A DNA stretch of 64,000 bases from Clostridia bacterium (GTDB taxonomy: Bacteria; Bacillota; Clostridia; Oscillospirales; CAG-272), in assembly GCA_017461945.1 (NCBI GenBank), contig JAFTSB010000057.1:3594-67593 (forward strand). The letters run 5' to 3'. Each line of letters opens with the position of its first letter. Position 1 is the stretch's first letter. The translations under genes were made by a program, and so were the position numbers. Shown here piece by piece: positions 290-60,762 of the stretch. The notes beneath the pieces were generated by a model. That model was not told the origin of the DNA. It worked only from the letters and a program-made list of their open reading frames with translations, and did no database searches.

Positions 290-2194
290 ATGGAGCAATT
301 TGATCAATGGCCCGTATTGGGCACCATTGCATCTCCCGCCGATCTCAAGGAACTGCCTGCTGAAAAGTTGGAGACCTTGGCCAAGGAGATCCGGGAGTAT
401 CTTGTTTTTCGCGTTGGTGAGAACGGCGGACATCTGGCCTCCAATCTCGGTGTTGTGGAATTGACGCTGGCCATTCATCGTGTGTTTGACTCGCCTGTGG
501 ATCACATTGTATTTGATGTGGGGCATCAAAGCTATGTGCATAAGCTGTTGACCGGCCGAAAAGAGGATTTTGACACTCTTCGCGCGCCGGGTGGCCTTTC
601 GGGCTTTACCAAGCGCACCGAGAGCGCGCACGATCCCTTTGGCGCAGGGCATAGCTCCACGGCCATTTCTGCCGCCATCGGTCTGGCAGAGGCAGAGTAC
701 CGCAAGGGCAGCAACGCCTGGACGGTTGCCGTGGTAGGAGACGGCGCGCTGACAGGTGGCCTTGCTTATGAGGCATTGAACAACTGTCCGCGCCACCTGC
801 GCTTGATTTTGATCATCAATGAAAACGAGATGTCCATCTCGCCCAACACAGGGCGCCTTGCCAACCACTTGGCACGAATGCGTACGTCGGGGAGTTATTT
901 AAAAACCAAGGAAGTTACCTCGGGTGCCCTCCGTCATATTCCTTTGATCGGTCGTCCGCTGTACTATCTGATCCGCCGTGCCAAGCGTGGGGTGCGCCAT
1001 CTGCTTTACAAAGAAAATCTGTTTGAACACATGGGAATCCGATATCGTGGACCAGTGGACGGGCACGATACCGATGGCCTGATCGCCCTGCTGGATAATA
1101 CCAAGCGCTTGGGTGAGAGTGTACTGCTGCACGTCAAAACGAAAAAGGGAATGGGGTATGCTCCCGCTGCATCCGACCCCAATGCATACCACTCTTTGCC
1201 GCCCAAGGGCAAGACACCTGTCGGCGAGACCTTTTCCGGGGCGTTTGGTCGCCACCTTTGCCGGTTGGCAGAGGGAAACCGCGATCTTTGCGCCATCACC
1301 GCGGCCATGAGCTGTGGAACGGGACTGGAGCCGTTTCGTGCCCAATACCCCGATCGTTTTTGGGATGTGGGGATTGCTGAGGGGCACGCGGTGACCTTTG
1401 CATCCGGCCTCTGCGCCGGCGGTTTGCGGCCTGTGGTCGCTGTTTATTCCACATTTTTGCAGCGTGCCTATGATAATGTGCTGCACGATGCCGCCCTGCA
1501 GGAATTGCCATTGGTTCTGTGTATTGACCGTGCCGGTCTCAATGCGGGAGACGGCCCCACACATCACGGCATTTTTGATGTGGCGCTGCTGTCGGCCCTG
1601 CCCGGTGTGACCATCTACGCGCCGGTGACGTTGGCCGGTCTTGGTCACTCTCTGGAGGAGGCCTTGACAAAAAAGAAGGGTGTTTCTGCCATCCGCTACC
1701 CCAACGGCGGTCAAAATGCGGAAACGGTAGCCGCTTTTTATCCCCATGGAACAGACGACGGTCAGCCCCTTGGAGTGCGCGTGTGGGAGAACGGTGTTGC
1801 CGATGTACCGTTGACCGTGGTGACCCACGGACGCATTGCCACCGTTGCCCTGGAGGCCGCACGGGCTTTGGGCAAGGTGGGGATCGGCGTGCGTATAGTG
1901 CTGTGTGAAATACTGGCACCGTATGACCGTTTGGCTCATATGGTGGCACCGCATTTGTGTCAAAATGTTCTGTTTTTGGAGGAGGAGATCCGCACGGGCG
2001 GCTTTGGTATGTGCCTTTGTGATGCATTGGAAAGACAAGGTACGATGGCTCACCGCCATCGCGTGATCCTTGGTACCGAGAACGGCTTTGTGACTCCCGA
2101 AAAAGGAAAATCCATGCTGCAAGCCGCAAGATTGGATGCCGAAAACGTGCAAACGGTAGCAGAAAAAATGATCAAAGGAGAAATGTCATGTTAA
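290..2194 (+). CDS. dxs: 1-deoxy-D-xylulose-5-phosphate synthase
   Basis: N-terminus MEQFDQWPVLGTIASPADLKEL and HLASNLGVVELT, plus the TPP motif VVGDGALTGGLAYEALN. SD GAAAGGGGG lies 8 nt before ATG 290; the track ORF starts at in-frame GTG 281. Confidence 0.93.
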   Translation: MEQFDQWPVLGTIASPADLKELPAEKLETLAKEIREYLVFRVGENGGHLASNLGVVELTLAIHRVFDSPVDHIVFDVGHQSYVHKLLTGRKEDFDTLRAPGGLSGFTKRTESAHDPFGAGHSSTAISAAIGLAEAEYRKGSNAWTVAVVGDGALTGGLAYEALNNCPRHLRLILIINENEMSISPNTGRLANHLARMRTSGSYLKTKEVTSGALRHIPLIGRPLYYLIRRAKRGVRHLLYKENLFEHMGIRYRGPVDGHDTDGLIALLDNTKRLGESVLLHVKTKKGMGYAPAASDPNAYHSLPPKGKTPVGETFSGAFGRHLCRLAEGNRDLCAITAAMSCGTGLEPFRAQYPDRFWDVGIAEGHAVTFASGLCAGGLRPVVAVYSTFLQRAYDNVLHDAALQELPLVLCIDRAGLNAGDGPTHHGIFDVALLSALPGVTIYAPVTLAGLGHSLEEALTKKKGVSAIRYPNGGQNAETVAAFYPHGTDDGQPLGVRVWENGVADVPLTVVTHGRIATVALEAARALGKVGIGVRIVLCEILAPYDRLAHMVAPHLCQNVLFLEEEIRTGGFGMCLCDALERQGTMAHRHRVILGTENGFVTPEKGKSMLQAARLDAENVQTVAEKMIKGEMSC

Positions 2195-2817
2195 TAACAG
2201 AGCGCACCTGCGTTATGAATTTCGAAAACGCCATCCGTGGGGCACGCAATCCCATGAACAGCTGGGCCCGTATGGATAGTACCTATGACGAAAAGGGCAA
2301 TTTTGTTTTGGGCCCCAACGATCTGGACCTGGCCAAGCGACTGGCACGCGCCGGCAGCGATCACCGCAAATACCTGCGCCAAATCTTTGTGTCGGTGGAT
2401 ATCACCGCTCCCTTGTATTGGTGGAAGGAATTTGACACCTATAAGGTAGGAACGGTTGCCAATTCCTGCTCTACGATGCATAAAATTCACGCAAAGCCCT
2501 TTGAACGAGATGATTTTTCAAACGATTATCTGGATGAAGGCGGCCTGCAGGCTTTGGATGCTTTGATTGCCTATTTGGAAGGGGAGCGCGTGAAATTTAC
2601 GCAGGATAAGACCAATAAGCAGGCTTGGCACAATATGATCCAGCTGCTGCCCTCGTCCTTCAATCAAATGCGCACCGTGTCGCTGAATTACGAGGTGCTG
2701 ATCAATATTTACTATGCTCGTCGCACCCACAAGCTGGCCGAATGGCATACGCTGTGCGACTGGATCCTTTCGTTGCCCTACGCTCGCGAGCTGATCACCG
2801 TCCGCGAGGAAAATTGA
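2188..2817 (+). CDS. hypothetical protein, distant ThyX/Thy1-like by eye with substrate motifs not conserved
   Basis: AAAGGAG SD 7 nt before ATG 2188; overlaps the dxs stop by 7 nt. GSDHRKYLRQIFVSVDITAPLYWWKEFDTYKVGTVANSCSTMH resembles the ThyX core, but RHRxxS and SxRY are replaced. Confidence 0.7.
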   Translation: MLITERTCVMNFENAIRGARNPMNSWARMDSTYDEKGNFVLGPNDLDLAKRLARAGSDHRKYLRQIFVSVDITAPLYWWKEFDTYKVGTVANSCSTMHKIHAKPFERDDFSNDYLDEGGLQALDALIAYLEGERVKFTQDKTNKQAWHNMIQLLPSSFNQMRTVSLNYEVLINIYYARRTHKLAEWHTLCDWILSLPYARELITVREEN

Positions 2818-2824
2818 CCAAAAT

Positions 2825-2847
2825 GCCGCACACGGTGCGGCGTTTTT
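2825..2847 (+). terminator. intrinsic terminator
   Basis: GCCGCAC-ACG-GTGCGGC hairpin followed by GTTTTT. Confidence 0.7.
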
Positions 2848-2870
2848 GCCCCTTGAAAAGGAGATAATGT

Positions 2871-3980
2871 ATGATTAAATATCGATTGCAGATCGGCCTT
2901 GACGTGGACGATGTTCTGTACGACTGTAACGCCTATGCATTGGAGTGGCTCAATCGGGAGGAGCAGATTGATCCCCCCTTGCATGTCTATGATATCCATG
3001 GCTGGGGAACGGGCGACGAGCGACTGGATCGTCGTATTCGCTATTTTTCAGATCCGCATTTTGTAGAAACGCAGCCCATTTTGCCCGGTGCCAAGGAATT
3101 TGTGCGCAAGCTGACTGAGGTGGCGGAGGTGTTTTTTGTTTCCGCAGTACCGCCTGCCTGTATGAGCGCTCGCGCACTGCGTCTGCGTGAGGATTTTCCT
3201 GAGGTGCCTGCCGAAAATATTTTGCTTGGCACCCGCAAGGATCTGGTGCAGTTGGATATTTTGCTGGATGATGGTGCTCATAACATTTCACGTTCTCCCG
3301 CCACCTATCCAGTACTGTTCCGCAAACCTTGGAATGTGCACCTTTCCGGTTTGATTTCTGTGAATACGTATGACGATTTTGAGCATTTGGTGGAGATTTT
3401 GCGTGCGGCATCCTCGCTGGCTAAGCCCGATTTGACCAAGGGCGGCGTTGTTTGCTTGGTGGGCCCCACGGGCAGCGGCAAAAATGAGATCGCCGAAGCT
3501 TTGGTTCGTGAACATCAAATGATCCGCCCAGTGTCGGTGACGACACGGCCCAACAAGGCCGGCTCCGACGACGATCATTACAAGGTGGTATCGAAAAAGG
3601 AATTTTTCAAGCTGGCCAATGCAGACAAGTTCCTGGAGACCACCGTTTATAGCGGCCATCATTTCGGCACGCTGACCGAAGAACTGGACAATATCGTTTC
3701 CGCCGAAAAATGTGCTGTCATTCCCATTGATATTTGTGGCGCGCTCAGTATGAAAAATCGCTACCGTTCCCGGGCTATGTTGGTCTTTACGCGCTGCCGA
3801 CGCGAGCGCGTGGTGCTGGATATTGTATCTCGCGACCTGGATCCCACCGATAAGACCTGCCGCATTCTATCCTTGGATGATGAATATCGCAACGAGGAGC
3901 TTTGCGATCTGACCGTGCGCACCGACCGTGGGCCGGCAGAGGCCGTTCATGCGATCACGGCCGCCATCACAAAGGGGTAA
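2871..3980 (+). CDS. fusion protein: HAD-type 5'(3')-deoxyribonucleotidase-like N-domain plus guanylate-kinase-like P-loop C-domain
   Basis: N-terminal HAD motif I LDVDDVLYD. C-terminal P-loop GPTGSGKNEI and VSVTTRPNKAGSDDDHYKVVSKKEFFKL...TTVYSGHHFGT (guanylate-kinase pattern). SD AAAAGGAG before the ATG. Confidence 0.75.
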   Translation: MIKYRLQIGLDVDDVLYDCNAYALEWLNREEQIDPPLHVYDIHGWGTGDERLDRRIRYFSDPHFVETQPILPGAKEFVRKLTEVAEVFFVSAVPPACMSARALRLREDFPEVPAENILLGTRKDLVQLDILLDDGAHNISRSPATYPVLFRKPWNVHLSGLISVNTYDDFEHLVEILRAASSLAKPDLTKGGVVCLVGPTGSGKNEIAEALVREHQMIRPVSVTTRPNKAGSDDDHYKVVSKKEFFKLANADKFLETTVYSGHHFGTLTEELDNIVSAEKCAVIPIDICGALSMKNRYRSRAMLVFTRCRRERVVLDIVSRDLDPTDKTCRILSLDDEYRNEELCDLTVRTDRGPAEAVHAITAAITKG

Positions 3981-4047
3981 AAACGCACAATACTGAATGA
4001 ATTTTCTGCATAGAACATTCTATATTGTATAAAATCACACTTTATGC

Positions 4048-4076
4048 TTGACATTTGCATATTTATACGCTATAAT
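4048..4076 (+). promoter_or_regulatory. sigma-70-like promoter of the amino-acid ABC transporter operon
   Basis: TTGACA (4048-4053), 17-nt spacer, TATAAT (4071-4076). Confidence 0.7.
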
Positions 4077-4136
4077 ACTAATGCCTTACGGCTTTAATAT
4101 CTACCCTATGGGGTTGCTTTGAAAGGAAATATGACC

Positions 4137-5030
4137 ATGAAAAAGGTACTGACTCTGGTGCTTGCCGTGCTGATGCTGGTGACCTGCGTAGCCGCCTTCT
4201 CGGCGTGCAGCAAGACCAATGATGATTTTGTGGCTGTGGATGCCGCCGACCTGCTGCAGGAGGATTTCGGCATCGCCGTGAAAAAGAACTCGCCCGAGCT
4301 GCTGGCTGCTGTCAATACGGTGGTTGACGAATGGGTTGCTAACGGCACTATGACCAAGTACGTGGAGTACTACACCGCTTTGGCCGATTATGCCGAAAAG
4401 GGCGGCACCGCCCCCGAGGCCGGTGATCTGAAGACCTCTTGGGATTTTGGCACCGCTACCGAGGTGATTACGGTTTATACCGAATCCGGCTTTGCCCCTT
4501 TTGAGTTTATCTACAACAACGAGGTGGTTGGCGTTGACTTTGCTATTATGAACCAGGTCGCCGTGAATATGGGCAAAAAGGTTGTGGTAAAGGACATTGC
4601 CTTTGATACCATTCCTACCTCCGTTAAGTCCGATACCGGCCTTGCCGTGGGTGCTGCCGGTATGACCATTACCGATGAGCGCCGCGAGGAGGTTGACTTC
4701 TCCAGCATTTATTACAGCTCCACCTTGGTGGTGGTTTCCGCTAAGGATAAGGCGATTGGCAGTGTTGCCGAGCTGGCAGGCTTGAAGGTGGGCGTGCAGG
4801 AGGGCACCAGCGGTGACCTGATCATCTCCGATGCCAAGGGCGACGGCTACTCCTATGAGGTGGAAAAGGAAGACGGCACCGTTGAGACCATTGTGGTCAA
4901 GGCTGCCGGCGCTACGGTATCCCAGTATAAGCAGTATGCACTGGCTCTGGCCGATCTCAAGGCCGGCCGCATTGATGCCATTCTGATGGATAAGCTGCCT
5001 GCACAAACCATGCTGAGTGCTGCAGAATAA
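4137..5030 (+). CDS. amino-acid ABC transporter substrate-binding lipoprotein (SBP family 3)
   Basis: Signal peptide plus lipobox MKKVLTLVLAVLMLVTCVAAFSAC. FAPFEF, VGVDFAI and MTITDERREEVDFSSIYY are typical of polar amino-acid binding proteins. AAAGGA lies 8 nt before ATG 4137. Confidence 0.88.
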   Translation: MKKVLTLVLAVLMLVTCVAAFSACSKTNDDFVAVDAADLLQEDFGIAVKKNSPELLAAVNTVVDEWVANGTMTKYVEYYTALADYAEKGGTAPEAGDLKTSWDFGTATEVITVYTESGFAPFEFIYNNEVVGVDFAIMNQVAVNMGKKVVVKDIAFDTIPTSVKSDTGLAVGAAGMTITDERREEVDFSSIYYSSTLVVVSAKDKAIGSVAELAGLKVGVQEGTSGDLIISDAKGDGYSYEVEKEDGTVETIVVKAAGATVSQYKQYALALADLKAGRIDAILMDKLPAQTMLSAAE

Positions 5031-5095
5031 CAATCACATACAACGAAGGGTGAAGGGGCGAAAGCTCGTTCACCCTTCCCAATGAAAGAGGATTT

Positions 5096-5809
5096 ATGGA
5101 ACAATTATGGACGCGATTTTCCAAAGCGTTTCTGGTGCAGGATCGCTGGAAAATGTATTTGGAGGGCTTGGGTAACACCCTGCTGATCGCCCTAATCGCC
5201 GCCCTGATCGGCATTGTGATCGGCGTGGTGATGGCAATGGTCAATTACATCAATAAAAAGACCGGGCGCTTAAAGGTATTATCCAAGATCTGCAATTTTT
5301 ATATTACCGTTGTGCGCGGCACCCCTGTGGTTTTGCAGCTGATGATTCTGTATTTTGTGGTGTTTGCCTTTTGGGATAACGGCATCATGATCGGTGCCAT
5401 TACCTTTGGTATGAACTCCGGTGCCTATGTGGCCGAAATTGCGCGCTCCGGCTTTGAGAGTGTGGATGACGGTCAAATGGAGGCCGGCCGTTCGCTGGGT
5501 CTTTCCACGTGGCAGACCGTGCGCGCAATCATCATTCCACAGGCCTTGCGCAATTGCTTGCCCCCCCTCTTCAATGAGTTTATTATGCTGGTCAAGGAGA
5601 CCGCTATCGTTGGCTATGTGGGTATTTACGATCTGGGCAAAATCCCGGGACTGATCCAATCCCGTACCTTTGATTATCTGTTCCCGCTGCTGATCGCTGC
5701 ATTGCTTTATTTGGCGGTGGTGTTGGTGCTGACGCGGATTTTGCACATCATCGAAAAGCGGTTGGCTAAGAGTGACCGAAACGGGGGAGGTGTTGGCAAT
5801 GGAAAATAA
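5096..5809 (+). CDS. amino-acid ABC transporter permease (His/Glu/Gln/Arg/opine family)
   Basis: Multi-TM protein with the EAA-like loop [28 protein letters not shown], between the SBP and ATPase genes. Confidence 0.9.
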
Positions 5810-6608
5810 ACCCTTGATCGAGGTCAGAGAGCTGACCAAAAGCTTTGGTGAGCTGCAGGTGCTGCGATCGGTTTCGGTGGATATCATGCCCGGAGAAAAG
5901 GTTGTCATCATTGGCGCCTCCGGCTCCGGAAAAAGCACGCTGCTGCGTTGCCTGAACTGTTTGGAGGATCCCACCGGTGGCTCGATTATGTTCGAGGACG
6001 AGGATCTGGCCGACCCCAAGGTGGATATCAATATCCATCGCCAAAAAATGGGTATGGTGTTTCAACAATTCAATCTGTTCAACAATAAAACCGTGCTTCA
6101 GAATATCACGTTGGCTCCTGTGACCATCCGCAAAAAGAAGCTGGCGCAGGCCAAACGCCGGGCGCTGTTTGGAAAGTGCGAAAAGCCTATCGAAACCAAA
6201 GAGCAGATTTTGAAAGAGGAAAACGAAAAGGCGATGCAGCTCCTTGCACGCATTGGCCTGGAGGATAAGGCTAACGTGTATCCTTCTACACTCTCGGGTG
6301 GACAAAAGCAGCGCATTGCCATTGTGCGCGCCCTTGCGATGAATCCCAAGGTGATGCTGTTTGACGAGCCTACCTCCGCCCTTGACCCCGAAATGGTAGG
6401 CGAGGTGCTGGATCTGATGAAGCAGCTGGCCGATGAGGGCATGACGATGGCTATCGTGACCCATGAGATGGGCTTTGCCCGTGAGGTGGCGGATCGCATC
6501 CTCTTTATGGATGACGGTGTCATCGCTGAGCAGGGTAGTCCCGAGGAGATCTTTGGCAATCCCCAAAGCGAGCGCTTGAAGGCGTTTCTTGCCAAGGTGC
6601 TTTCATAA
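5799..6608 (+). CDS. amino-acid ABC transporter ATP-binding protein
   Basis: Walker [11 protein letters not shown]-loop MVFQQFNLF, signature [15 protein letters not shown], Walker [13 protein letters not shown]. Start chosen at MENKPLIEV, overlapping the permease stop. Confidence 0.92.
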
Positions 6609-6705: not shown

Positions 6706-8058
6706 ATGGGAAAATATTTTGGGACCGATGGATTTCGGGGCGAGGTAGGACGACAGCTCACCACCGAGCACGCCTTTGCGATCGGTCGTTTTATGGGACA
6801 TCATTTGCAGGGGGACCACCGTCCGCGCGTACTGATCGGAAAGGATACGCGCCGCTCCTCCTATACGCTGGAATACGGCTTAATAGCAGGGCTGACAGCC
6901 TCGGGGGCAGAAGCGCACCTGGTACACGTGCTTCCAACGCCGGGGGTGTCGTATCTGGTACAGACACAGGGCTTTGATTGTGGCATTATGATTTCGGCCA
7001 GTCACAACCGATTTTCGGATAACGGTATTAAAATTTTTGCGCAAAACGGCGCCAAACTGGACGATGATACCACCGCATTGTTAGAGACCTTTCTGGATGG
7101 GGAACGGACGTTGCCGTCGGCGCAAGGAACGGATATCGGCACGGCGGTGGATGCAGGACCGATGGGCGAGCGGTATATGACCCATCTGCGGCAAAGCGTA
7201 CAGGGCGATCTGAAAGGTCTGCGTGTTGGGCTGGACTGTGCCAATGGCAGTGCTTCGCGCCTGGGCGAGATGCTCTTTCGGAATTTGGGTGCAACGGTCT
7301 TTCCCCTTCATTGCACCCCCGACGGCGTTAATATCAACCGCTCCTGTGGCTCCACGCATCCCGAAAGCCTTCAACGGTTGGTGGTGGAAAAGGGACTTGA
7401 TGTGGGGTTTGCGCTGGATGGCGATGCCGATCGTTGTATTGCGGTAGATCACGCCGGGCGCGTGGTGGACGGTGACGGCATTTTGTATGTCATGGGGCAA
7501 TATCTCAAGGCCGCCGGTCGCTTGAAGCACAATACCGTCATTACAACTGTGATGTCAAATATGGGGTTATATCAAGCCTTGGATGCCCTTGACATAACGT
7601 ATGAAAGCACACCCGTTGGCGACCGTTTTGTACACGAGCGAATGGTGCAGACCGATTGCGTTTTGGGGGGAGAACAATCGGGGCATATCATTTTCGGCGA
7701 ATATGCGGATACGGGTGACGGCCTGTTGACCGCGTTGCTGATTGCCGAGCGAATTTGCCGAAGCGGAAAAAGCTTGCAGCAGCTGACGGCAGGCTTTCAC
7801 TCCTACCCGCAACTGACCAAGACCTTTTATGTGTCAAATAGGGAGATGGTCATGGCCGATCCTGCTGTTTTACAAGTGGTGCAGGAGGCGGCCGTCGCGT
7901 TAGCGGGAAAGGGAAGGGTGCTGGCGCGCACCAGCGGTACCGAGCCGGCTGTGCGCTTGACCGTAGAAGCACCGGATGGCGCATTTTGTCGGAAAATTGT
8001 GGAACGTATGGCCGAAATCCTGCAACAAAGGAGGTTTTTGAGCGATGCTGATCACTGA
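6706..8058 (+). CDS. glmM: phosphoglucosamine mutase
   Basis: MGKYFGTDGFRGEVG N-terminus, phosphoserine loop SASHNRFSDNGIK, metal loop LDGDADR, GEQSGH. Confidence 0.92.
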   Translation: MGKYFGTDGFRGEVGRQLTTEHAFAIGRFMGHHLQGDHRPRVLIGKDTRRSSYTLEYGLIAGLTASGAEAHLVHVLPTPGVSYLVQTQGFDCGIMISASHNRFSDNGIKIFAQNGAKLDDDTTALLETFLDGERTLPSAQGTDIGTAVDAGPMGERYMTHLRQSVQGDLKGLRVGLDCANGSASRLGEMLFRNLGATVFPLHCTPDGVNINRSCGSTHPESLQRLVVEKGLDVGFALDGDADRCIAVDHAGRVVDGDGILYVMGQYLKAAGRLKHNTVITTVMSNMGLYQALDALDITYESTPVGDRFVHERMVQTDCVLGGEQSGHIIFGEYADTGDGLLTALLIAERICRSGKSLQQLTAGFHSYPQLTKTFYVSNREMVMADPAVLQVVQEAAVALAGKGRVLARTSGTEPAVRLTVEAPDGAFCRKIVERMAEILQQRRFLSDADH

Positions 8059-52962: not shown

Positions 52963-54339
52963 TTATTTAGGCATTCGGTCTTTTCTTGACTTCATGCCAT
53001 AGTAGGAGTTTCCTTGCCACGAATGGTCATAAAAGACGATTTCCGGTATCATCACGCCGGCCTCAAAAAAAGGATTGTGATAATAATTCTTGGCGGGAAT
53101 GGAATAAATTTTGGCTAATATACCATTTTCGATAAAGAACAATTGGTTTTTCAATACTTGTAAGGGCGAACAAAAGCAGTGCAATTCTTCAAAGCCCTCG
53201 TCTATATAGATTTTGGCACAGACATAGCACTCATCTGCCGAATTATACACGCCGTCGTTCCCTTTGTATTTTATGTTCATGTCATTGGCGTAAATGTCCG
53301 TAGCCGGGATATTTTGCGCCAAAAGATAGTTTTTCCCGGCTTCACTTAACGGGAGGGCATCAAGCTGGCCGTTTTCGGCGTGCGTGCTGCCCGGAATGTA
53401 AAACTTTACTTGTTTGCCGTGTTCCTTTAATTCGTGGTAGAGTGCTATTCCTGCGTTTAAGCGGCTACAAAATTCCTCGTTGGGTGTGTCGCCGTTGACA
53501 AGAGGATGTTGTGCAGATATTTGAATCAGAACACGTTTGGGATCAGCGACTTGCGTTTGTAGGGCGTGTTTGTATTTTTCGGCCCAATACACCTCTGCAG
53601 TATTTTCCCATGATGGGCTAATGTTCCAAACCGTGTTAAAATGTTCTGTTAACATATAAACAAAATTATCGTTTTCTTGCTGCAGCGCGGCGGTTTGACA
53701 GTCCATTCGGAACAAAATATGCTCCTTGGCTTTTGCAGGGGGGAGCGTAATATTTAGCCATACCGAGGTTTTAGCCTTGGGCGAATTTTCGTCAAAAGAA
53801 GCAATGACCAAAGGGAGCCGATATTCACTGGAAAAGTAGCGGACCTGCAGCTTGTTTTTCGATCCGCGGTTCAGATTTTCTAAAATTTCGTGTACCCGAT
53901 CCACTTCCAGATCTATGTTATCCTCAAAGGAGCGATAAGAAAATTCATGCTCCATGTTTTTGATATCCTTCAAAAATGGATTGTTTTTGCGAGAAAGAAG
54001 GATCTCGATCTTCGCACCTCTTGCCAATGCCTTTTTGATCATTTCCTGCTTTTTGATATCACTAAAAAAGCCTATGCCCGTTACAAAAATCAATTTGATC
54101 GTGTGAGCGTGAGAAAAAATGTAGCGGTATTCCTTTTCTGTAATATTTTTGTTGGATATGGAAGAAAGAAATCCATATTTTGAAAGCTCATTTGCAAATG
54201 TAATTTTGCTGATATATTTTTTTGTGAAAATAACAGCAATAAAGCCCGTTATGGCGGCCACGATCAGAGACTTTAGAATGTCGCTCCAAAAAGCGATGTG
54301 ATCAATGCTTGTCCAAAGCGCAAGATAATGATTAGGCAT
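52963..54339 (-). CDS. membrane-anchored fusion protein: N-terminal TM helix, unknown middle domain, C-terminal DUF218/YdcF-like domain
   Basis: AAGGAG SD 8 nt before ATG 54339. TM segment LKSLIVAAITGFIAVIF. C-terminal VLIQISAQHPLVNGDTPNEEFCSRLNAGIALYHE...LSEAGKNYLLAQNIP fits the DUF218 pattern. Visibly AT-richer than the core. Confidence 0.65.
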   Translation of the reverse strand: MPNHYLALWTSIDHIAFWSDILKSLIVAAITGFIAVIFTKKYISKITFANELSKYGFLSSISNKNITEKEYRYIFSHAHTIKLIFVTGIGFFSDIKKQEMIKKALARGAKIEILLSRKNNPFLKDIKNMEHEFSYRSFEDNIDLEVDRVHEILENLNRGSKNKLQVRYFSSEYRLPLVIASFDENSPKAKTSVWLNITLPPAKAKEHILFRMDCQTAALQQENDNFVYMLTEHFNTVWNISPSWENTAEVYWAEKYKHALQTQVADPKRVLIQISAQHPLVNGDTPNEEFCSRLNAGIALYHELKEHGKQVKFYIPGSTHAENGQLDALPLSEAGKNYLLAQNIPATDIYANDMNIKYKGNDGVYNSADECYVCAKIYIDEGFEELHCFCSPLQVLKNQLFFIENGILAKIYSIPAKNYYHNPFFEAGVMIPEIVFYDHSWQGNSYYGMKSRKDRMPK

Positions 54340-54598: not shown

Positions 54599-54642
54599 TG
54601 GCACCCGCAGCGGGAATCGAACCCACAACTAACCCTTAGGAG
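54599..54642 (-). pseudogene. 3' half of a split tRNA-Arg(CCT) gene (anticodon loop to CCA)
   Basis: The minus strand reads CTCCTAAGGGTTAGTTGTGGGTTCGATTCCCGCTGCGGGTGCCA. This is the T arm GTGGG-TTCGATT-CCCGC and acceptor 3' strand TGCGGGT. There is no 5' half adjacent. Confidence 0.85.
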
Positions 54643-54778
54643 TTTTTATTGGTGTTCATTTCTATCTGTGTGTGGGTGTTTTTCTTGCAAAACAAGCGTA
54701 AAATCGACCGAAACGATAGATCTTACGCTTGGTAGGTTGTGTGTTTGTTGGTGGTTTTTGTAGTGCTTTGTAATGTGC

Positions 54779-54803
54779 GGGTGTACAATGGGTGGACAAA
54801 AAG
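54779..54803 (+). repeat. left copy of the 25-nt motif GGGTGTACAA-N-GGGTG-N-ACAAAA
   Basis: GGGTGTACAATGGGTGGACAAAAAG, compared with GGGTGTACAAAGGGTGTACAAAACAG at 56981-57006. Same orientation. Confidence 0.8.
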
Positions 54804-54813
54804 TAAAGTGCGT

Positions 54814-55575
54814 TTATTTGGTTTCGTTGCCATAAATCCGATCAATTTTATCGTTTATTTTTGTTTTTGCCAATAATTCACTCTGCATATTATTCAGAAC
54901 AGACATTTTTTCGTCAATTATTAGAGATTGAAAATGAGCGTGGATGTTATCATACAAAATGTATTCATCATAAGAGCCTTCTTCATAATTGGTGATAACA
55001 GCGTTAATTCGGTTGTTCGCTGTGTAGTCATATTCAGCCAAAGCTCTAATCATAGAAATCATTAAAGCTTTAATGCCGTTTATAGTATTTTCTTTTGGCT
55101 TCCATATTGTATTGCAATAGTCATCTATTATTGAGTACATTGAATCAAAATCAAAACTGGCTATTCGGTTAATTCTGTTATATAAGTCTATTACGAGTGG
55201 TTTATTATATGCGTGGTTGTTCAGCTTTAATTTTTCAAGTTTCTCGAAATCATCTTTATCCAAATTAGTAAAATTTATGTTGTAATTAACCTTGGTTCCC
55301 TTATGAGAATACCAATTAGCAACAGATCTTATTAAGTTTACGCAAGTTATGAATTTTGTATTGAAATCTCGTTCGTATTCGAATTTTATGGAATAAAAAT
55401 TTATAAAGGCTAACGTACCGCTTAGAAAAGCTCCGCCCACAAGTGATATGAATATGTTCAAAAACACTTCAAAAACAGGATGGCAATTTTTTAATGGAGT
55501 AAAGACACATATACACAAAATACTTAGTAAAAATGAGACTAGCGAAATCCAAAAAACTAATTTATTTATTTTCAT
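54814..55575 (-). CDS. hypothetical membrane protein (253 aa, two N-terminal TM helices plus a soluble domain)
   Basis: AGGTGA SD before ATG 55575, with its own TTGATT...TATAAT promoter-like signal upstream. TM segments LVFWISLVSFLLSILCICVF and FLNIFISLVGGAFLSGTLAFINF. Confidence 0.7.
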   Translation of the reverse strand: MKINKLVFWISLVSFLLSILCICVFTPLKNCHPVFEVFLNIFISLVGGAFLSGTLAFINFYSIKFEYERDFNTKFITCVNLIRSVANWYSHKGTKVNYNINFTNLDKDDFEKLEKLKLNNHAYNKPLVIDLYNRINRIASFDFDSMYSIIDDYCNTIWKPKENTINGIKALMISMIRALAEYDYTANNRINAVITNYEEGSYDEYILYDNIHAHFQSLIIDEKMSVLNNMQSELLAKTKINDKIDRIYGNETK

Positions 55576-55684
55576 CAATGTTCACCTATGATTTTTTATT
55601 ATATTATAGCATAAAGCATAATAAAATCAATGTATTTTACAAGCATACAAACCGTTGAAAATACTCTTTTGGGGAACAGGATAA

Positions 55685-55730
55685 GAGGAGGGGCTAAATT
55701 GCCATCACTGCGTGAATTTAGCCCCTCCTC
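55685..55730. repeat. perfect 16-bp inverted repeat with a 14-nt spacer
   Basis: GAGGAGGGGCTAAATT (55685-55700) and AATTTAGCCCCTCCTC (55715-55730), GC-rich arms in AT-rich intergenic DNA. Confidence 0.85.
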
Positions 55731-55760
55731 GATTGCTCAAAAGCGGGATACCCGCCTTTA

Positions 55761-55922
55761 TTATTTGGTTGAAAGTATTGCTGAAAGTGCAGCCAATATT
55801 TCCAGAGGATGCTTGGCTTTGTCTATGGATTGCTTCAATAGTTCCTTATCTAAATCGGTTAGCGGATGATTTGAATGATCAACCAGTAATTTCCACATAG
55901 TTTTAACTTGTTGTTCTGTCAT
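55761..55922 (-). CDS. small hypothetical protein (53 aa), below the ORF-track size cut-off
   Basis: ATG lies 1 nt after the upstream gene's TGA (TGATATG). MTEQQVKTMWKLLVDHSNHPLTDLDKELLKQSIDKAKHPLEILAALSAILSTK, followed by a short GCGGG/CCCGC hairpin plus TTTT. Confidence 0.5.
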   Translation of the reverse strand: MTEQQVKTMWKLLVDHSNHPLTDLDKELLKQSIDKAKHPLEILAALSAILSTK

Positions 55923-55923
55923 A

Positions 55924-56829
55924 TCAAAGTCCTAAAATTTGTTTTTTCTTTTGCTCATAATCTTCTTGTGTAATCAATCCGTCATCAAGCATTTCTTTTA
56001 ATTCTTGGAGTTTCTCTTTTGAGGAAGTGGGAGTTTTTGAAAAAGCTCCCGCAAAGGGCGTTACTGCATCTTCAAGTTTTCTTGCATTTAACACAAATTC
56101 AAGTTCTGAACATACAGCATGCAAACTTTTTCTCGCTTCTTTGTAAATGTTAGTAGACTTGTTAATGTTTCCGCCGTTTATAAATGCTATATTAAGCTGA
56201 GTGTTTGCAGAATCGTTTATGCGAATAATTAATTCTAATTGAGAACACATTTCGTTTATTGACCTGCCGACATTACTGCCTACAATCATTCCACCAAGTC
56301 CGAAAAACGCTCCGCCTATCAATGCACTACCTGCCGTTCCTTCTACTTCGCGCCTGCCATTTTCATATACTTCGTAATTGATGATGTCAGAAAAGTTATA
56401 GGTTTTTGAAAAAGTGGATTTTACTTGATAGATAAACTTTTTGTTTTTGTCGTCAATTAAAAGTTTTTTGGTGGTTCGTCCCTTGCCAAAAATCATTATA
56501 ATTTTAGACAATACAAAATTGCTATCAGGGATCCCTGCTTGAGGGGTTAATGCTTCGATGCCTTCGGGCAAACAGGCAATATGCTTGCACATCATATAGT
56601 CGATAATCCAACCGTAGTCGCTTCTAGTTTTATATACATACATAAACCAAATGCAAACAAACAAAGTGGAAATGAAAAAAAGCAAACTTAAAGTGAGCAA
56701 AGCCCTTTCAAACAAGAGAGACAGCACTACACATACAAGCATCATAATACATGCGACAACACCCAAATATGTGGAAAACAACCAAAGTGCCTTCCTCTTT
56801 TTAATAATTTGAATTGGATCGATATTCAT
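55924..56829 (-). CDS. membrane protein with a C-terminal SHOCT domain (301 aa)
   Basis: AGGAGAG SD before ATG 56829; the track ORF extends upstream into the tRNA. Two TM helices, a glycine zipper GSALIGGAFFGLGGMIVGS, and the SHOCT-like tail KLQELKEMLDDGLITQEDYEQKKKQILGL. Confidence 0.75.
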   Translation of the reverse strand: MNIDPIQIIKKRKALWLFSTYLGVVACIMMLVCVVLSLLFERALLTLSLLFFISTLFVCIWFMYVYKTRSDYGWIIDYMMCKHIACLPEGIEALTPQAGIPDSNFVLSKIIMIFGKGRTTKKLLIDDKNKKFIYQVKSTFSKTYNFSDIINYEVYENGRREVEGTAGSALIGGAFFGLGGMIVGSNVGRSINEMCSQLELIIRINDSANTQLNIAFINGGNINKSTNIYKEARKSLHAVCSELEFVLNARKLEDAVTPFAGAFSKTPTSSKEKLQELKEMLDDGLITQEDYEQKKKQILGL

Positions 56830-56879
56830 ATGGTACTCTCCTAATTTGAATTGACGGAATGATCCTTCCAAAATCAATA

Positions 56880-56954
56880 TGGCACCCCCAACGGGAATCG
56901 AACCCATAACTAACCCTTAGGAGGGGTTTATTATATCCATTTAACTATGGAGGC
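56880..56954 (-). tRNA. tRNA-Arg(CCT), complete, carried inside the insertion
   Basis: The minus strand folds by hand into a 75-nt cloverleaf. Acceptor GCCTCCA/TGGGGGT, D arm GTTA..TAAT, anticodon arm AACCC-CTCCTAA-GGGTT, T arm ATGGG-TTCGATT-CCCGT, then G-CCA. Confidence 0.85.
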
Positions 56955-56980
56955 GTGCTATTTAATTGTGATTTTCGCTT

Positions 56981-57006
56981 GGGTGTACAAAGGGTGTACA
57001 AAACAG
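56981..57006 (+). repeat. right copy (tandem GGGTGTACAAA x2) of the motif also found at 54779-54803
   Basis: GGGTGTACAAAGGGTGTACAAAACAG, about 90 nt inside the right junction. Confidence 0.8.
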
Positions 57007-57095
57007 CGATTAGCAGGTTTAGGACACAAAATCCTTGTAGTGTTTGAGTCTATCCTCATAAGGTTTCATTCTATCCTCGCGGATAGACCTACCGA

Positions 57096-57133
57096 TTAGG
57101 AGGGGCTTGTTATATCCATTTAACTATGCAGGC
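57096..57133 (-). pseudogene. 5' half of the split tRNA-Arg(CCT) gene (acceptor 5' strand to anticodon loop)
   Basis: The minus strand reads GCCTGCATAGTTAAATGGATATAACAAGCCCCTCCTAA and then diverges (TCGGTAGG...). GCCTGCA pairs with TGCGGGT of the fragment at 54599-54642. Confidence 0.85.
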
Positions 57134-57405
57134 GTATTCAATTTTTGACACCGTATCGGCGTTTTTGTCGCATTTTGCTGCCAAATAGGTGCTGTTCGGC
57201 AGCAGCAACAGTGGAGCATCGCCCCGACACAACGGCTTGTGCATTACAGAGTATACCACATTTCGGACAAAAAGGCAAGAGCTTAAAAAAGCTTTTGGCA
57301 AGATTTTATGTGCGGTCAAGTGTGTTCCGTGCTCGCCAGGGAAAGTAAAAGTATGAGTTTCTTGAAATTTGATCGCAAAAAGTTCAAAAATCTTGGAAAA
57401 AGAGC

Positions 57406-57435
57406 TTGACATTTGCTTCTTGATTATGTTATAAT
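57406..57435 (+). promoter_or_regulatory. sigma-70-like promoter of rplU-prp-rpmA
   Basis: TTGACA (57406-57411), 18-nt spacer, TGtTATAAT (57427-57435). Confidence 0.7.
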
Positions 57436-57523
57436 AAATGGCCGCTTGAAAAAGGCTATGTGAAGTGTATCCTCGCGATACCGCCTGAGATCAGCGAGTC
57501 TATAAGAAAGAGAGGTGCTTTTC
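57436..57523 (+). promoter_or_regulatory. 5' leader of rplU; possible L21-leader-type autoregulatory RNA
   Basis: An ~88-nt untranslated leader between the promoter and GTG 57524. It sits in the position where Firmicutes carry the L21 leader. The structure was not verified. Confidence 0.3.
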
Positions 57524-57835
57524 GTGTACGCAATTATCGAAACCGGCGGAAAGCAGTACAAGGTCAACGAAGGCGACGTTATCTTCGTTGAAAAGCTCGG
57601 CGTTGCTGAGGGTGAGACCGTAGAGTTCACCAATGTAAAGGCTCTGTCCAAGGACGGCGCTCTGGTTGTTGGTACTCCCGTTGTTGAAGGCGCAAAGGTT
57701 ACCGCTACCGTTGTAAAAGAGGGTAAGGGTAAGAAGGTCGTTGTCTTCAAGTACAAGTCCAAGAAGAACGAGAAGAAGAAGATGGGCCACAGACAGCCCT
57801 ACACGAAGGTTCAGATCAACGCTATCGTTGGTTGA
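57524..57835 (+). CDS. rplU: 50S ribosomal protein L21
   Basis: (V)[27 protein letters not shown] start after GAGAGG. Confidence 0.95.
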
Positions 57836-58777: not shown

Positions 58778-58869
58778 GGAGAGATGGCTGAGCTGGTCTA
58801 AGGCGCACGACTGGAAATCGTGTTAGGGCTAATACCCCTACAAGAGTTCGAATCTCTTTCTCTCCGCCA
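58778..58869 (+). tRNA. tRNA-Ser(GGA)
   Basis: 92 nt. Acceptor GGAGAGA/TCTCTCC, anticodon arm CACGA-CTGGAAA-TCGTG, long variable arm, T arm AAGAG-TTCGAAT-CTCTT, then G-CCA. Confidence 0.9.
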
Positions 58870-58873
58870 CGAC

Positions 58874-58902
58874 AAAAGGACGTCCGAAAGGGCGTCCTTT
58901 TT
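58874..58902. terminator. bidirectional terminator between tRNA-Ser and the integrase gene
   Basis: GGACGTCC-GAAA-GGGCGTCC flanked by A4 and T5. Confidence 0.8.
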
Positions 58903-58906
58903 GCAT

Positions 58907-59764
58907 TTAAAACACCTCCAGGCAGCGCTTTTGCACGCTGACGTCCGGGTGCAGATACGTATCGGCGGTGATCGCGATATCAGAGTGGCCGAGCACGTCG
59001 GAAATGATTTTGAGATCCACGCCCTTTTTCAACATCAACGTAGCGTAGCTGTGCCGGAGATCGTGAAAGCGTATGTTAGGGAAATCGAAATTCTCAAGCA
59101 AGATCTTAAATCGGTTCTCCATCTGATTAGGCGTGAGCTTGCAAGCGTAGGATCCGTTATAGGGAGTACAGCATAGCATATCAAAATGCTCCGGTCGCAG
59201 AAGGATGTACCGATCAGAGTCCTCGGTCTTGCAAGGAGTGACCACCTCGCGACCGGACTCCCAGGATCGAGACCGCTGCACGTGCAGCGTCATATCACAC
59301 GGATCCAGGTCGCGCTCTGGGATGATGCCAAGGCACTCACCGCGGCGCAGGCCGTAGCACAGCGCCATGGTCACCGGGATTTCCAGGGAAGTTCCCTGAA
59401 CACAATCAAGCATACGGCGCATCTCGCTTTCCGGCAACACTTGATATTTATACCGGTTGATCCGGGGGAGATCAAAGCGGCCGTAAGGATTGAAATCCAT
59501 ATAACCGCGCCGGATCGCGTAATTGATCATCTTGCGCAACGTGGCGTGCACGTAGACGATCGATCGGTTAGAAAGGCCACGGCCTTTCAGCAGCTCGGTG
59601 AGGAAATCAAGATCAGATACGGTCAGACTGTCGGCCGGAAAGTCACCGAACGCAGGCAGCACGTGCCGGTGCAGGTTCACCCGGTACCCGCGCACGGTGG
59701 AGGGGCGCAACCGGCGCTCACAGTAGTTTTTGAGGAATTCCTCGGCAAGGGTGTTAATGGTCAT
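58907..59764 (-). CDS. tyrosine site-specific recombinase/integrase
   Basis: SAM-like N-domain (NTLAEEFLKNYCERRLRPSTVRGYRVNL). Catalytic contexts LRRGECLGI, HDLRHSYATLML and GHSDIAITADTYLH. Confidence 0.9.
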   Translation of the reverse strand: MTINTLAEEFLKNYCERRLRPSTVRGYRVNLHRHVLPAFGDFPADSLTVSDLDFLTELLKGRGLSNRSIVYVHATLRKMINYAIRRGYMDFNPYGRFDLPRINRYKYQVLPESEMRRMLDCVQGTSLEIPVTMALCYGLRRGECLGIIPERDLDPCDMTLHVQRSRSWESGREVVTPCKTEDSDRYILLRPEHFDMLCCTPYNGSYACKLTPNQMENRFKILLENFDFPNIRFHDLRHSYATLMLKKGVDLKIISDVLGHSDIAITADTYLHPDVSVQKRCLEVF

Positions 59765-60762
59765 TTCATTTTCTCCTTTTCTTCATCGGTCATTTGTCTG
59801 ACACGGGTCATACGGTAGCCAAAACCTACCATCCACTCATACGTAACGACGACGTACTCAACGTCACGACGCAACTGCTCGTTATCGGTATATACAAGAT
59901 CACCATCAGTCACGTCATCCAGCTTGAGCTTGCGCGCAATTTCCTTAAAAACTCCGGTAAAAGAGCACAAGCGCCGACCGGCAAGCGCGGTAGACAACAG
60001 ATCTACAGCACGATCAATCTGCTGATCAGTTCCACGCAGATAATCAGCATCTTTCAACGTATACTTAGCCACCTCAAGGACGGCGCCCTTCAAACTGACC
60101 TCACCGTCATCCATTTCACGAGCTCGCACCTTGTGAATCTCTACCGAAGGATCATAATCCAAACGGCAGCACTCACGCCAAAGCTGCATAAGCTCATCGT
60201 GGTTTATGTAATCCTTACCGTGAAAGTAAGATTCTCTAACGGCAATAATCAAATGCAAATGGGGATGCCACTCAATGCTCCGAAAATACTCCGGGTGGCG
60301 CGTAATCTCAACGGCTTTGAAAACGCCTTTGAATGCTCGATGCACTTTGGCGCGCTGCATAAAACGATTAAAAGCACTTTGGATATCATCTAAGGTACGA
60401 ATCAAATCTGATCCGGCACAGTTCCGAACGGTCAGAGTGCAAAAAACAAAGCGATACCCTTGTGCAGACAACACGTCCATGATCTGCGAGATCTGGCCGT
60501 AAATCTTACGTGTTCGTCTCCACGTACACATGCGACAAAGGCGATCTTTACAAAAATTAGCAAATGATAGCCGAGGAGGGGAACCATCTGTAAAAAAATG
60601 CCACTCGGTATACGTACCACACAGCTCCACAAGTTTGGCACGATCGTGCATACCAAGCCGCTGATAAGAAAAGATCAAGGGCTGATTATCAAGCTTTCGA
60701 TCCACAAACTTGGTGCCAAGCTCACCGCTCTCCAGCTCGTGAGCGGTATCATCAAAATTCAA
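59761..60762 (-). CDS. rolling-circle replication initiator, Rep_1 (pC194/pUB110) family
   Basis: HUH motif WHPHLHLIIAV, active-site Tyr context LEVAKYTLKD, and Cys-rich FANFCKDRLCRMCTWRR. The stop overlaps the integrase ATG (ATGA). Confidence 0.85.
   Translation of the reverse strand: MNFDDTAHELESGELGTKFVDRKLDNQPLIFSYQRLGMHDRAKLVELCGTYTEWHFFTDGSPPRLSFANFCKDRLCRMCTWRRTRKIYGQISQIMDVLSAQGYRFVFCTLTVRNCAGSDLIRTLDDIQSAFNRFMQRAKVHRAFKGVFKAVEITRHPEYFRSIEWHPHLHLIIAVRESYFHGKDYINHDELMQLWRECCRLDYDPSVEIHKVRAREMDDGEVSLKGAVLEVAKYTLKDADYLRGTDQQIDRAVDLLSTALAGRRLCSFTGVFKEIARKLKLDDVTDGDLVYTDNEQLRRDVEYVVVTYEWMVGFGYRMTRVRQMTDEEKEKMK

Follow-up and report, generated by a model that had tools for sequence, protein, structure and literature searches.

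Integration that destroys a tRNA gene and supplies a substitute for it is known from the tRNA-dependent lysogeny of actinobacteriophages (Fionnbharth, Cluster L), which was shown experimentally in mycobacteriophages (Guerrero-Bustamante & Hatfull, mBio 2024; PMC10865867). In these phages it is established that a short core serves to disrupt a tRNA, that the element carries a tRNA of matching isotype and that it has flanking arm sites; the Lj965 prophage of Lactobacillus johnsonii was put forward as a possible case outside Actinobacteria, and the authors asked how widespread disrupt-and-complement integration is (PMC10865867). Another related group is formed by the cis-mobilizable elements (CIMEs), which derive from ICEs (integrative and conjugative elements) or IMEs (integrative and mobilizable elements), for example the kin of ICESt1/ICESt3 in Streptococcus thermophilus (PMC5704250; ICEberg 2.0, PMC6323972). 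Here we describe a 2,460-bp cassette that lies within a tRNA-Arg(CCT) gene of a Clostridia bacterium (assembly GCA_017461945.1, contig JAFTSB010000057.1; the 64,000 nucleotides analysed are called the window, and positions refer to its forward strand). The cassette belongs to a previously undescribed family that combines tRNA-dependent (disrupt-and-complement) integration with CIME-like non-autonomy. A limited literature search, which is not proof of absence, returned neither ICE- or IME-type elements of Clostridia using the disrupt-and-complement strategy nor a conserved miniature cassette that keeps a tRNA and arms without an integrase. Taking the comparisons below together, we think it probable that the GGGTGTACAA repeat pairs found near both ends of the cassette are arm-type integrase sites of a composite attachment site, and that the cassette is a non-autonomous unit moved in trans.

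The insertion splits the resident tRNA-Arg(CCT) within its 7-nt anticodon loop, CTCCTAA, which is thereby duplicated and reads TTAGGAG on the plus strand at 54636-54642 and 57096-57102. Alignment to the complete tRNA of the cassette places the orphan 5' half at 57133-57096 and the orphan 3' half at 54642-54599, both on the minus strand and each including one core; both carry the whole 7-nt loop, and the sequence common to the two halves is exactly these 7 nt. Joined through one loop copy, the halves give a 75-nt tRNA with the acceptor pair G5-C68, where the cassette tRNA has C5-G68, and chimeras of resident and cassette tRNA fold worse. At neither junction is there a hybrid tRNA, only the orphan 5' and 3' halves. 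As the halves pair with each other and the chimeras fold worse, it was one resident gene that a single insertion, bringing its own tRNA, has split. This complete tRNA-Arg(CCT) lies at 56880-56954 on the minus strand (ARAGORN; Rfam, 58 bits) and differs from the resident one at 6 positions, including the compensated acceptor pair. The insert is AT-rich, with a GC content of 30-37% against about 45-55% in the flanks. A previous sequence-only reading of this DNA had given the element 2.45 kb and proposed a circular junction joining 54643 and 57095; with the cores placed as above, the insertion is 2,460 bp long, one core copy counted.

An empty allele was reached through the 458-aa protein encoded beside the insertion (52963-54339, minus strand), by looking up every metagenome contig that encodes exactly this protein. 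Five occupied alleles (L083-L085, L002 and L003; loci are numbered with L throughout) and two empty ones (L086 and L087) were obtained, in which about 3,185 nt and about 710 nt, respectively, separate the 458-aa gene from that for ribosomal L21. Between the same two genes, both empty alleles have an intact tRNA-Arg(CCT) that is exactly the tRNA reconstructed from the orphan halves. Since the two flank alignments of L086 to the occupied window meet with an overlap of exactly 7 nt, the core, of which the empty allele has one copy, the insertion of 2,460 bp is precise and polymorphic. The sequence-only reading had made its case depend on presence/absence variation of the cassette, and such variation exists. 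A strict empty-site pattern had given 0 matches in the JGI metagenomes. When occupied and empty alleles are compared (window 57134-57600 and L086 561-1046), they are 99.5% identical in the tRNA-downstream flank and only about 80-82% identical in the upstream flank on the side of the L21 operon, a contrast which points to recombination, or to divergence between strains, directly on the promoter side of the tRNA. The 458-aa protein has no Pfam domain and is exactly conserved in nine metagenome contigs.

The repeats stand out clearly from the rest of the window. Copies of GGGTGTACAA are paired in tandem, with a period of 11 nt, at 54779-54799 and again, similarly oriented, at 56981-57001, so the near-identical repeats that had been noticed at the inner ends of the cassette are indeed there. 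Over the 64 kb, the 21-nt tandem pattern GGGTGKACAANGGGTGKACAA has exactly two matches, both on the plus strand, even with 2 mismatches permitted; none of 100 shuffles matches it, the number expected by chance is 0, and lone 10-mers of the repeat elsewhere in the window are at background level. Read on the tRNA strand (minus), the far-end pair is TTGTCCACCCATTGTACACCC and starts 157 nt before the core, and the tRNA-proximal pair is TTGTACACCCTTTGTACACCC, which begins 101 nt past the core and leaves 26-27 nt between its end and the cassette tRNA; the latter pair is invariant in 19 aligned loci. The earlier estimate of about 140 and 90 nt from repeat to junction becomes 136 and 94 nt when counted from the repeat edges as redefined here.

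What surrounds these pairs is conserved as well. The tRNA-proximal arm (57002-57095, minus strand) is conserved over 19 loci, together with its two GATAGAC-type boxes (57048-57055 and 57063-57075, plus strand) and its inverted repeat TCTATCC/GGATAGA (57070-57087). This agrees with the sequence-only reading, which had pointed to TCTATCC-N4-GGATAGA and to GTCTATCC at 57048-57055; both are present and conserved family-wide. The far-end arm (54643-54778, minus strand) is conserved over 17 loci, with a box AGATAGAAATGAACAC at 54652-54667, an A/C-rich spacer and, from an inverted-repeat search, a terminator-like inverted repeat with a T-run at 54693-54731. A second short motif, GTTCATTTCTATC and GTTTCATTCTATC, had been seen beside both junctions; it is there, but within the window alone it does not rise above chance, as the second copy requires an indel and 64 of 100 shuffles attain the count. 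In the comparative alignments, however, each copy coincides with a box that is conserved in the family, GATAGAnnnGAAC/AAAC, and lies near the core at both ends.

A search for the repeat-pair pattern in a one-genome-per-species collection returned 72 loci, about 40 of them in metagenome-assembled genomes of gut Clostridia/Oscillospiraceae; the others are scattered over phyla in a manner consistent with chance. The same layout is found at 33 loci on 32 contigs, all from gut Clostridia and representing about 30 species, with the tRNA-proximal end visible in 24, the far end in 15 and both in 6. At the 24 loci the pair starts 100-101 nt past the core that closes the orphan 5' half, and at the 15 it starts 147 or 157 nt ahead of the core that opens the orphan 3' half, the distance of 157 nt being found at 14 of 16 far ends. 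In the sense of the tRNA, an orphan 5' half ending in CTCCTAA is followed by a conserved 94-nt arm, by TTGTACACCCtTTGTACACCC at 100-101 nt past the core, and then by a spacer of about 27 nt, a complete tRNA-Arg and 0.8-3.7 kb of cargo; the far end consists of TTGTmCACCCnTTGTACACCC, an A/C-rich spacer, a conserved hairpin with a T-run and the box AGATAGnnnnGAACAC, and CTCCTAA closes the unit 157 nt after the start of the far pair and opens the orphan 3' half. Both ends are conserved over about 260 bp, the repeat pairs being the best-conserved blocks outside the tRNA across about 30 species, and the cargo is unrelated from locus to locus. The motif is therefore tied to insertion ends and is not a dispersed genomic repeat, which was the point that the sequence-only reading had wanted settled in related genomes.

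The orphan halves rejoin to a valid tRNA in 5 of 7 complete loci. The cassette-borne tRNA is tRNA-Arg(CCT) in all relatives except L067, whose anticodon is TCT (6919-6993) owing to one C-to-T change within the 7-nt core; this change alters decoding and, judging from the sequence, would mean that no further unit could insert at this core. Six species share an identical cassette tRNA while their resident tRNAs differ, which argues for horizontal spread of a module made of the tRNA and the two ends. Clustering of cargo proteins across loci revealed almost no common families, and therefore no hidden common enzyme; none of 20 tested cargo proteins is a recombinase. Among the cargo are a restriction-modification pair of the Bpu10I type, a type I-like methylase accompanied by two specificity subunits, and numerous small proteins that are membrane or zinc-ribbon proteins, and 20 of 22 cargo open reading frames (ORFs) have the orientation of the tRNA. 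PADLOC gave nothing convincing for the cargo of the window and 7 other cargo proteins, with one weak coiled-coil-type match only. The repeat pair had 0 matches in viral contigs, so that nothing points to a phage origin.

Units are nested at three loci, L075 with stacked proximal ends and L065 and L007 with serial far ends; because of this nesting, the cassette-borne tRNAs must be targets in their turn. In L007 (oriented, 990-6100) a single tRNA locus is followed by a nested array of four successive far ends: an integrase is present in the newest unit, an older one has another repeat, with three copies of TTGGTAT some 150 nt ahead of its own core, and the oldest are decaying, with a mutated core (TTCCTAA) or truncated ends.

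The cassette itself holds no recombinase, as the sequence-only reading had concluded. Its three ORFs, which share one orientation and encode 302, 53 and 253 aa, gave PH_gly_zipper/SHOCT or nothing in Pfam and PADLOC searches, with no integrase, excisionase or transfer gene among them, and tblastn with the integrase of the family found no match in the cassette. Some relatives do encode an integrase. Directly upstream of the far end of L013 lies an ORF for a 534-aa tyrosine integrase (Phage_integrase, 7.5e-21, and a SAM-like domain), and in L013, L007 and L096-98 an integrase of 532-534 aa is followed directly by four copies of TTGTACACCC and then by the core. Homologues form a family of 464-571-aa proteins in ICE- or IME-like contexts, with a VirB4/TraG-type ATPase, ArdC, a primase-polymerase, DNA methylases and a MobL relaxase, and also with toxin-antitoxin or restriction genes and a second, degenerate integrase paralogue. 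Complete elements are seen in L082 (about 10.2 kb) and L092 (about 10.8 kb); they lie between orphan tRNA-Arg(CCT) halves, each with its own tRNA-Arg just inside the boundary. ORFs of 52-70 aa precede the integrase genes in the parent elements.

The sequence of the repeat varies with the integrase clade, and its position relative to the core stays fixed. Integrases at least 66% identical to that of L013 (L013, L007, L096-99 and L077) go with the repeat (T/C)(T/C)GTACACCC, which lies at +100 to +111 on the tRNA side (the pair is at +100 in L099 and at +111 in L077) and has four copies at the far end, where the last pair starts 147 nt ahead of the core. With P0009, the integrase of L082 (56% identical to that of L013), the repeat is (C/G)AATACACCC, in two copies at about +99 and three about 160 nt before the core; with P0022, that of L092 (55%), it is TTTACACC (TTTTACACCC / ATTTACACC), in pairs at about +100 and -146. 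The distance from repeat to tRNA, on the other hand, varies from 27 to 67 nt among relatives. As the repeats keep their place relative to the core but not relative to the tRNA, and as they co-vary with the enzyme, they are most likely arm-type sites and not a promoter element. The layout that had been proposed from the sequence alone, with arm-type direct repeats around a 7-bp core and an integrase in trans or lost, is strongly supported by this comparison, since the integrase-bearing relatives share the core, the repeat positions and, in the closest clade, the repeat sequence.

An AlphaFold2 model of the integrase, built on 32 family members (mean predicted local distance difference test score, pLDDT, of 80) has three beta-strands and then a long helix at residues 2-69, ahead of the SAM-like core-binding domain, with a pLDDT of about 67-86 in this block. 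A beta-sheet-plus-helix N-terminus ahead of the core-binding domain is the arm-binding layout of lambda Int and Tn916 Int, and the N-terminus of the family integrase is thus predicted to have an arm-binding-type fold. The best Foldseek matches of the model are Tn1549 Int and full-length lambda Int, with IntI4 only distant.

Some features of these integrase genes can be noted in passing. In the ICE-like parents a degenerate paralogue (336-385 aa, weak Phage_integrase match), apparently without catalytic residues, always lies immediately upstream of the functional-looking integrase (L013, oriented, 81-1091; L077, 8833-9990; L096, 8838-9974; L099, 385-1515). In L077, L082, L092 and L099 the integrase gene is antisense and just after the tRNA of the element, and in L013, L007 and L096-98 it is at the far end and reads towards the core, that is, on the opposite side of the attachment site. 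P0061, an integrase with 47% identity, lies beside a tRNA-Arg(TCT) without the split-tRNA signature and was set aside as not informative for this system.

The locus thus has a short core shared by element and target and duplicated at both junctions, and repeated arm-type motifs on both arms at 101 and 157 nt from it, as in attachment (att) sites of the lambda type. The target site, attB, lies in a tRNA gene and has the perfect inverted repeat of the anticodon stem; so short a core does not suffice to rebuild that gene, and the element has its own tRNA-Arg(CCT). The cassette is bounded by the att sites of the integrase-bearing family (L013, L007, L096-99) and has no integrase, excisionase or transfer genes, as expected of a CIME-like element, and from this we infer that it is mobilised in trans. 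The helper, encoded elsewhere, would be a heterobivalent tyrosine integrase that is Tn1549/lambda-like and belongs to the P0001-P0008 clade. Its N-terminal domain would dock on the repeat pairs, about 100 nt to one side of the core and about 157 nt to the other in the circular form, while the catalytic and core-binding domains would exchange strands over the 7-bp overlap with the anticodon stem-loop of a target tRNA-Arg(CCT). Because only 7 bp are common, the target tRNA would not be rebuilt; its gene would be inactivated and the cassette tRNA would compensate, offering at the same time a fresh target for the next insertion and giving rise to nested arrays. For excision this integrase would be needed again, probably together with a small directionality factor, a role that the 52-70-aa ORFs of the parents may have. 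The cargo lies downstream of the tRNA, shares its direction and is probably co-transcribed with it up to the conserved far-end hairpin.

Several observations weigh against this interpretation. The window contains no cognate integrase, and no integrase homologue closer than the protein encoded at 58907-59764, and the cassette contains no excisionase candidate. Pfam, with E values up to 10, reports no arm-binding family for the N-terminus of the integrase. Likeness to the anticodon-stem repeat is limited, in the reconstructed attP, to the tRNA-proximal side (G..GTAGGT against GGGTTAGTT); the far side is A-rich, and the core flanks form no clear inverted repeat. A circle junction, for which the sequence-only reading had proposed to search, is predicted here to read ...GATAGAAATGAACACCAATAAAAA-CTCCTAA-TCGGTAGGTCTATCC...; a family-wide pattern of this attP junction gave 0 matches among metagenome and viral contigs and in every locus fetched, a weak negative, as assemblies rarely keep circles. 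Finally, the tRNA-proximal pair overlaps a plausible -35 position of the cassette tRNA, and a second, regulatory role for this pair is possible.

That last point leads to the explanation, already raised in the sequence-only reading, that the repeats are transcriptional elements, a -35 box or an operator of the cassette tRNA, and not recombination sites. The pair does end 26-27 nt upstream of the tRNA, TTGTAC is similar to TTGACA, and by eye an A/T-rich, -10-like stretch follows 17-19 nt on. However, a consensus promoter scan reports nothing at this pair, the motif is absent from the resident tRNA's own promoter region, and the far-end pair has no downstream gene to regulate, since it is preceded by the cargo and followed by a terminator-like hairpin and a dead tRNA half. 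A promoter element would also not be expected to keep 100-101 nt from the core while its distance to the tRNA ranges from 27 to 67 nt, nor to change with the integrase clade, and we regard this explanation as very improbable. More serious is the idea that the cassette is an immobile fossil, an internal deletion remnant of an integrase-bearing element whose repeats are functionless relic arm sites. The lack of an integrase or excisionase, the decaying units with mutated cores or truncated ends in arrays such as L007, and the failure to find the circle junction in metagenome, viral or fetched sequences are all in line with it. We nevertheless find it unlikely, as both cores and both repeat pairs are intact here and the pairs are so well conserved in about 30 species, as an identical tRNA and ends go with different cargo in 6 species, and as the cassette is polymorphic with a 99.5%-identical downstream flank; insertions nested in cassette-borne tRNAs point the same way, and independent deletions would not be expected to yield the same minimal architecture repeatedly.

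The two remaining explanations concern other recombination enzymes. The sequence-only reading had suggested that the cassette might be mobilised by the integrase encoded at 58907-59764, for which proximity (1.8 kb) is the only argument. This 285-aa protein is an unlikely helper: its SAM-like core-binding domain begins at residue 2 and leaves no arm-binding module, its identity to the family integrase is 24% and confined to the catalytic domain, and no such neighbour is found at any of roughly 30 other cassette loci. It also sits between a tRNA-Ser(GGA) and a Rep_1 replication gene, which is the layout of a separate small integrative element, and all in all its involvement is scarcely credible. 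Even harder to accept is insertion by a DDE transposase, to which the 7-bp direct duplication could be ascribed as a target-site duplication. The cassette has no terminal inverted repeats, its internal end repeats are direct instead of inverted, the target is always the same 7-nt anticodon loop, and the autonomous relatives encode tyrosine integrases at their ends and not transposases; it was not classed as a DDE transposon.

Among the known systems that come closest to the cassette are the actinophages. Both use a tyrosine integrase and an attB in a tRNA gene, have a short core (about 10 bp there, 7 bp here) and do not rebuild the tRNA; both have putative pairs of arm-type sites flanking the attP core and a lambda-like integrase with an N-terminal arm-binding domain, which here is predicted (PMC10865867). 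The actinophages, however, are autonomous temperate phages with their own integrase, whereas the 2.46-kb cassette is integrase-less and its autonomous relatives are ICE- or IME-like and not phages; they occur in Actinobacteria and use tRNA-Lys(TTT), whereas the present family is found in gut Clostridia and uses tRNA-Arg(CCT). The element tRNA was shown to be essential in the phages (PMC10865867), whereas here it may be so. With CIMEs the cassettes share edges formed by the attL and attR of an integrase-bearing family and the lack of recombination and transfer genes, and CIMEs are likewise thought to be mobile when a related element supplies the integrase and form tandem or nested accretions at one site (PMC5704250, PMC6323972). 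The present cassettes differ in that a minimal order of arm, tRNA, cargo and arm is conserved in about 30 species with diversified cargo. CIMEs are usually taken as sporadic decay products, and we know of no CIME with a replacement tRNA.

Other comparisons are more partial. The P and P' arms of lambda Int and the sites of Tn916/Tn1549 Int likewise have direct repeats on both arms, about 100-160 bp from a 6-8-bp overlap, and the family integrase is structurally nearest to Tn1549 Int and lambda Int, with a predicted beta-sheet-plus-helix N-terminal module; it is larger, with an insertion of roughly 100 aa and a C-terminal extension, its arm binding is a prediction, and where Tn916/Tn1549 have low target specificity, one anticodon loop is used strictly here. 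Class I anticodon-loop islands (Islander, PMC4383910) and tycheposons (10.1101/2020.12.28.424599) also cross over in a symmetric anticodon stem-loop, and later integrations push older units outwards into arrays of partial tRNAs, but their attP carries the tRNA 3' part, which regenerates the gene at the junction, and they encode their own integrase. Like integron cassettes, those described here are small recombinase-less cargo units, arrayed at one site through what would be a trans-encoded tyrosine recombinase and co-oriented for expression from an upstream promoter. In contrast to them, they have a duplex attP with two arms and a tRNA in place of an attC hairpin or single-strand substrate, and each brings a new target instead of relying on a fixed attI. 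We did not class them as integron cassettes, given the two conserved arms, the duplicated 7-nt core, the tRNA and the lambda/Tn1549-like associated integrases.

The disrupt-and-complement logic is thus found in a different phylum, in conjugative or mobilizable-type elements and, most notably, in a conserved family of miniature cassettes that have shed the integrase while arms, core and tRNA persist. If mobilised in trans, the cassettes would be a compact gene-shuttling platform of gut Clostridia for cargo that includes restriction-modification and many membrane proteins, with retention built in through host dependence on the cassette tRNA and extensibility built in through the new target that each one brings. 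A bolder proposal is that they form an active integron-like gene-capture system of gut Clostridia (arm, tRNA-Arg, cargo, arm), in which co-resident ICE- or IME-like integrases mobilise the units, killing and replacing the tRNA creates addiction, and accessory, restriction-modification and membrane-protein genes are stacked indefinitely and expressed from the tRNA promoter; this may be so, although we find it doubtful as a whole. A minimal and highly site-specific att/integrase pair, with a 7-bp core and defined arms, could help to engineer anaerobes that are hard to manipulate.

Further observations concern the DNA next to the cassette and its relatives. The run of tRNA-Ser(GGA), 285-aa tyrosine integrase and Rep_1 rolling-circle replication gene at 58778-60762, which may extend beyond 64000, has the look of a small plasmid-like element that integrates separately; within the window, its far end is not marked by a tRNA-Ser repeat. 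In L026, L036, L065 (two copies) and L076 the displaced tRNA 5' halves have an insertion of roughly 115 nt in the D-loop, just 5' of the core ahead of the tRNA-proximal arm, with the conserved segments CCGCCCAAAGCAACGAG ... GAGTATGCGACGGTGGAG. A coding region reading into the core was considered for these four loci and rejected, the D-loop insertion being non-coding; it matches no Rfam family and could be another small mobile or structured element. An older cassette unit of L065 has a near-threshold match to Gut-1 RNA (RF01706; 47.1 bits against a gathering threshold of 50) at 4472-4541 in original coordinates, on the minus strand.

Within the cassette of the window, all three cargo genes are on the minus strand. 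The one nearest to the tRNA (55924-56832) encodes the 302-aa membrane protein, in which PH_gly_zipper is combined with a SHOCT domain at the C-terminus (Pfam, SHOCT 5.7e-09; PF27000 precomputed). The 53-aa ORF (55761-55922) and the gene for the 253-aa predicted membrane protein (54814-55575) have no Pfam or PADLOC family, and the latter protein was met only together with this cassette. Between the cargo genes lies a perfect 16-bp inverted repeat, GAGGAGGGGCTAAATT / AATTTAGCCCCTCCTC (55685-55730), which is probably an internal terminator.

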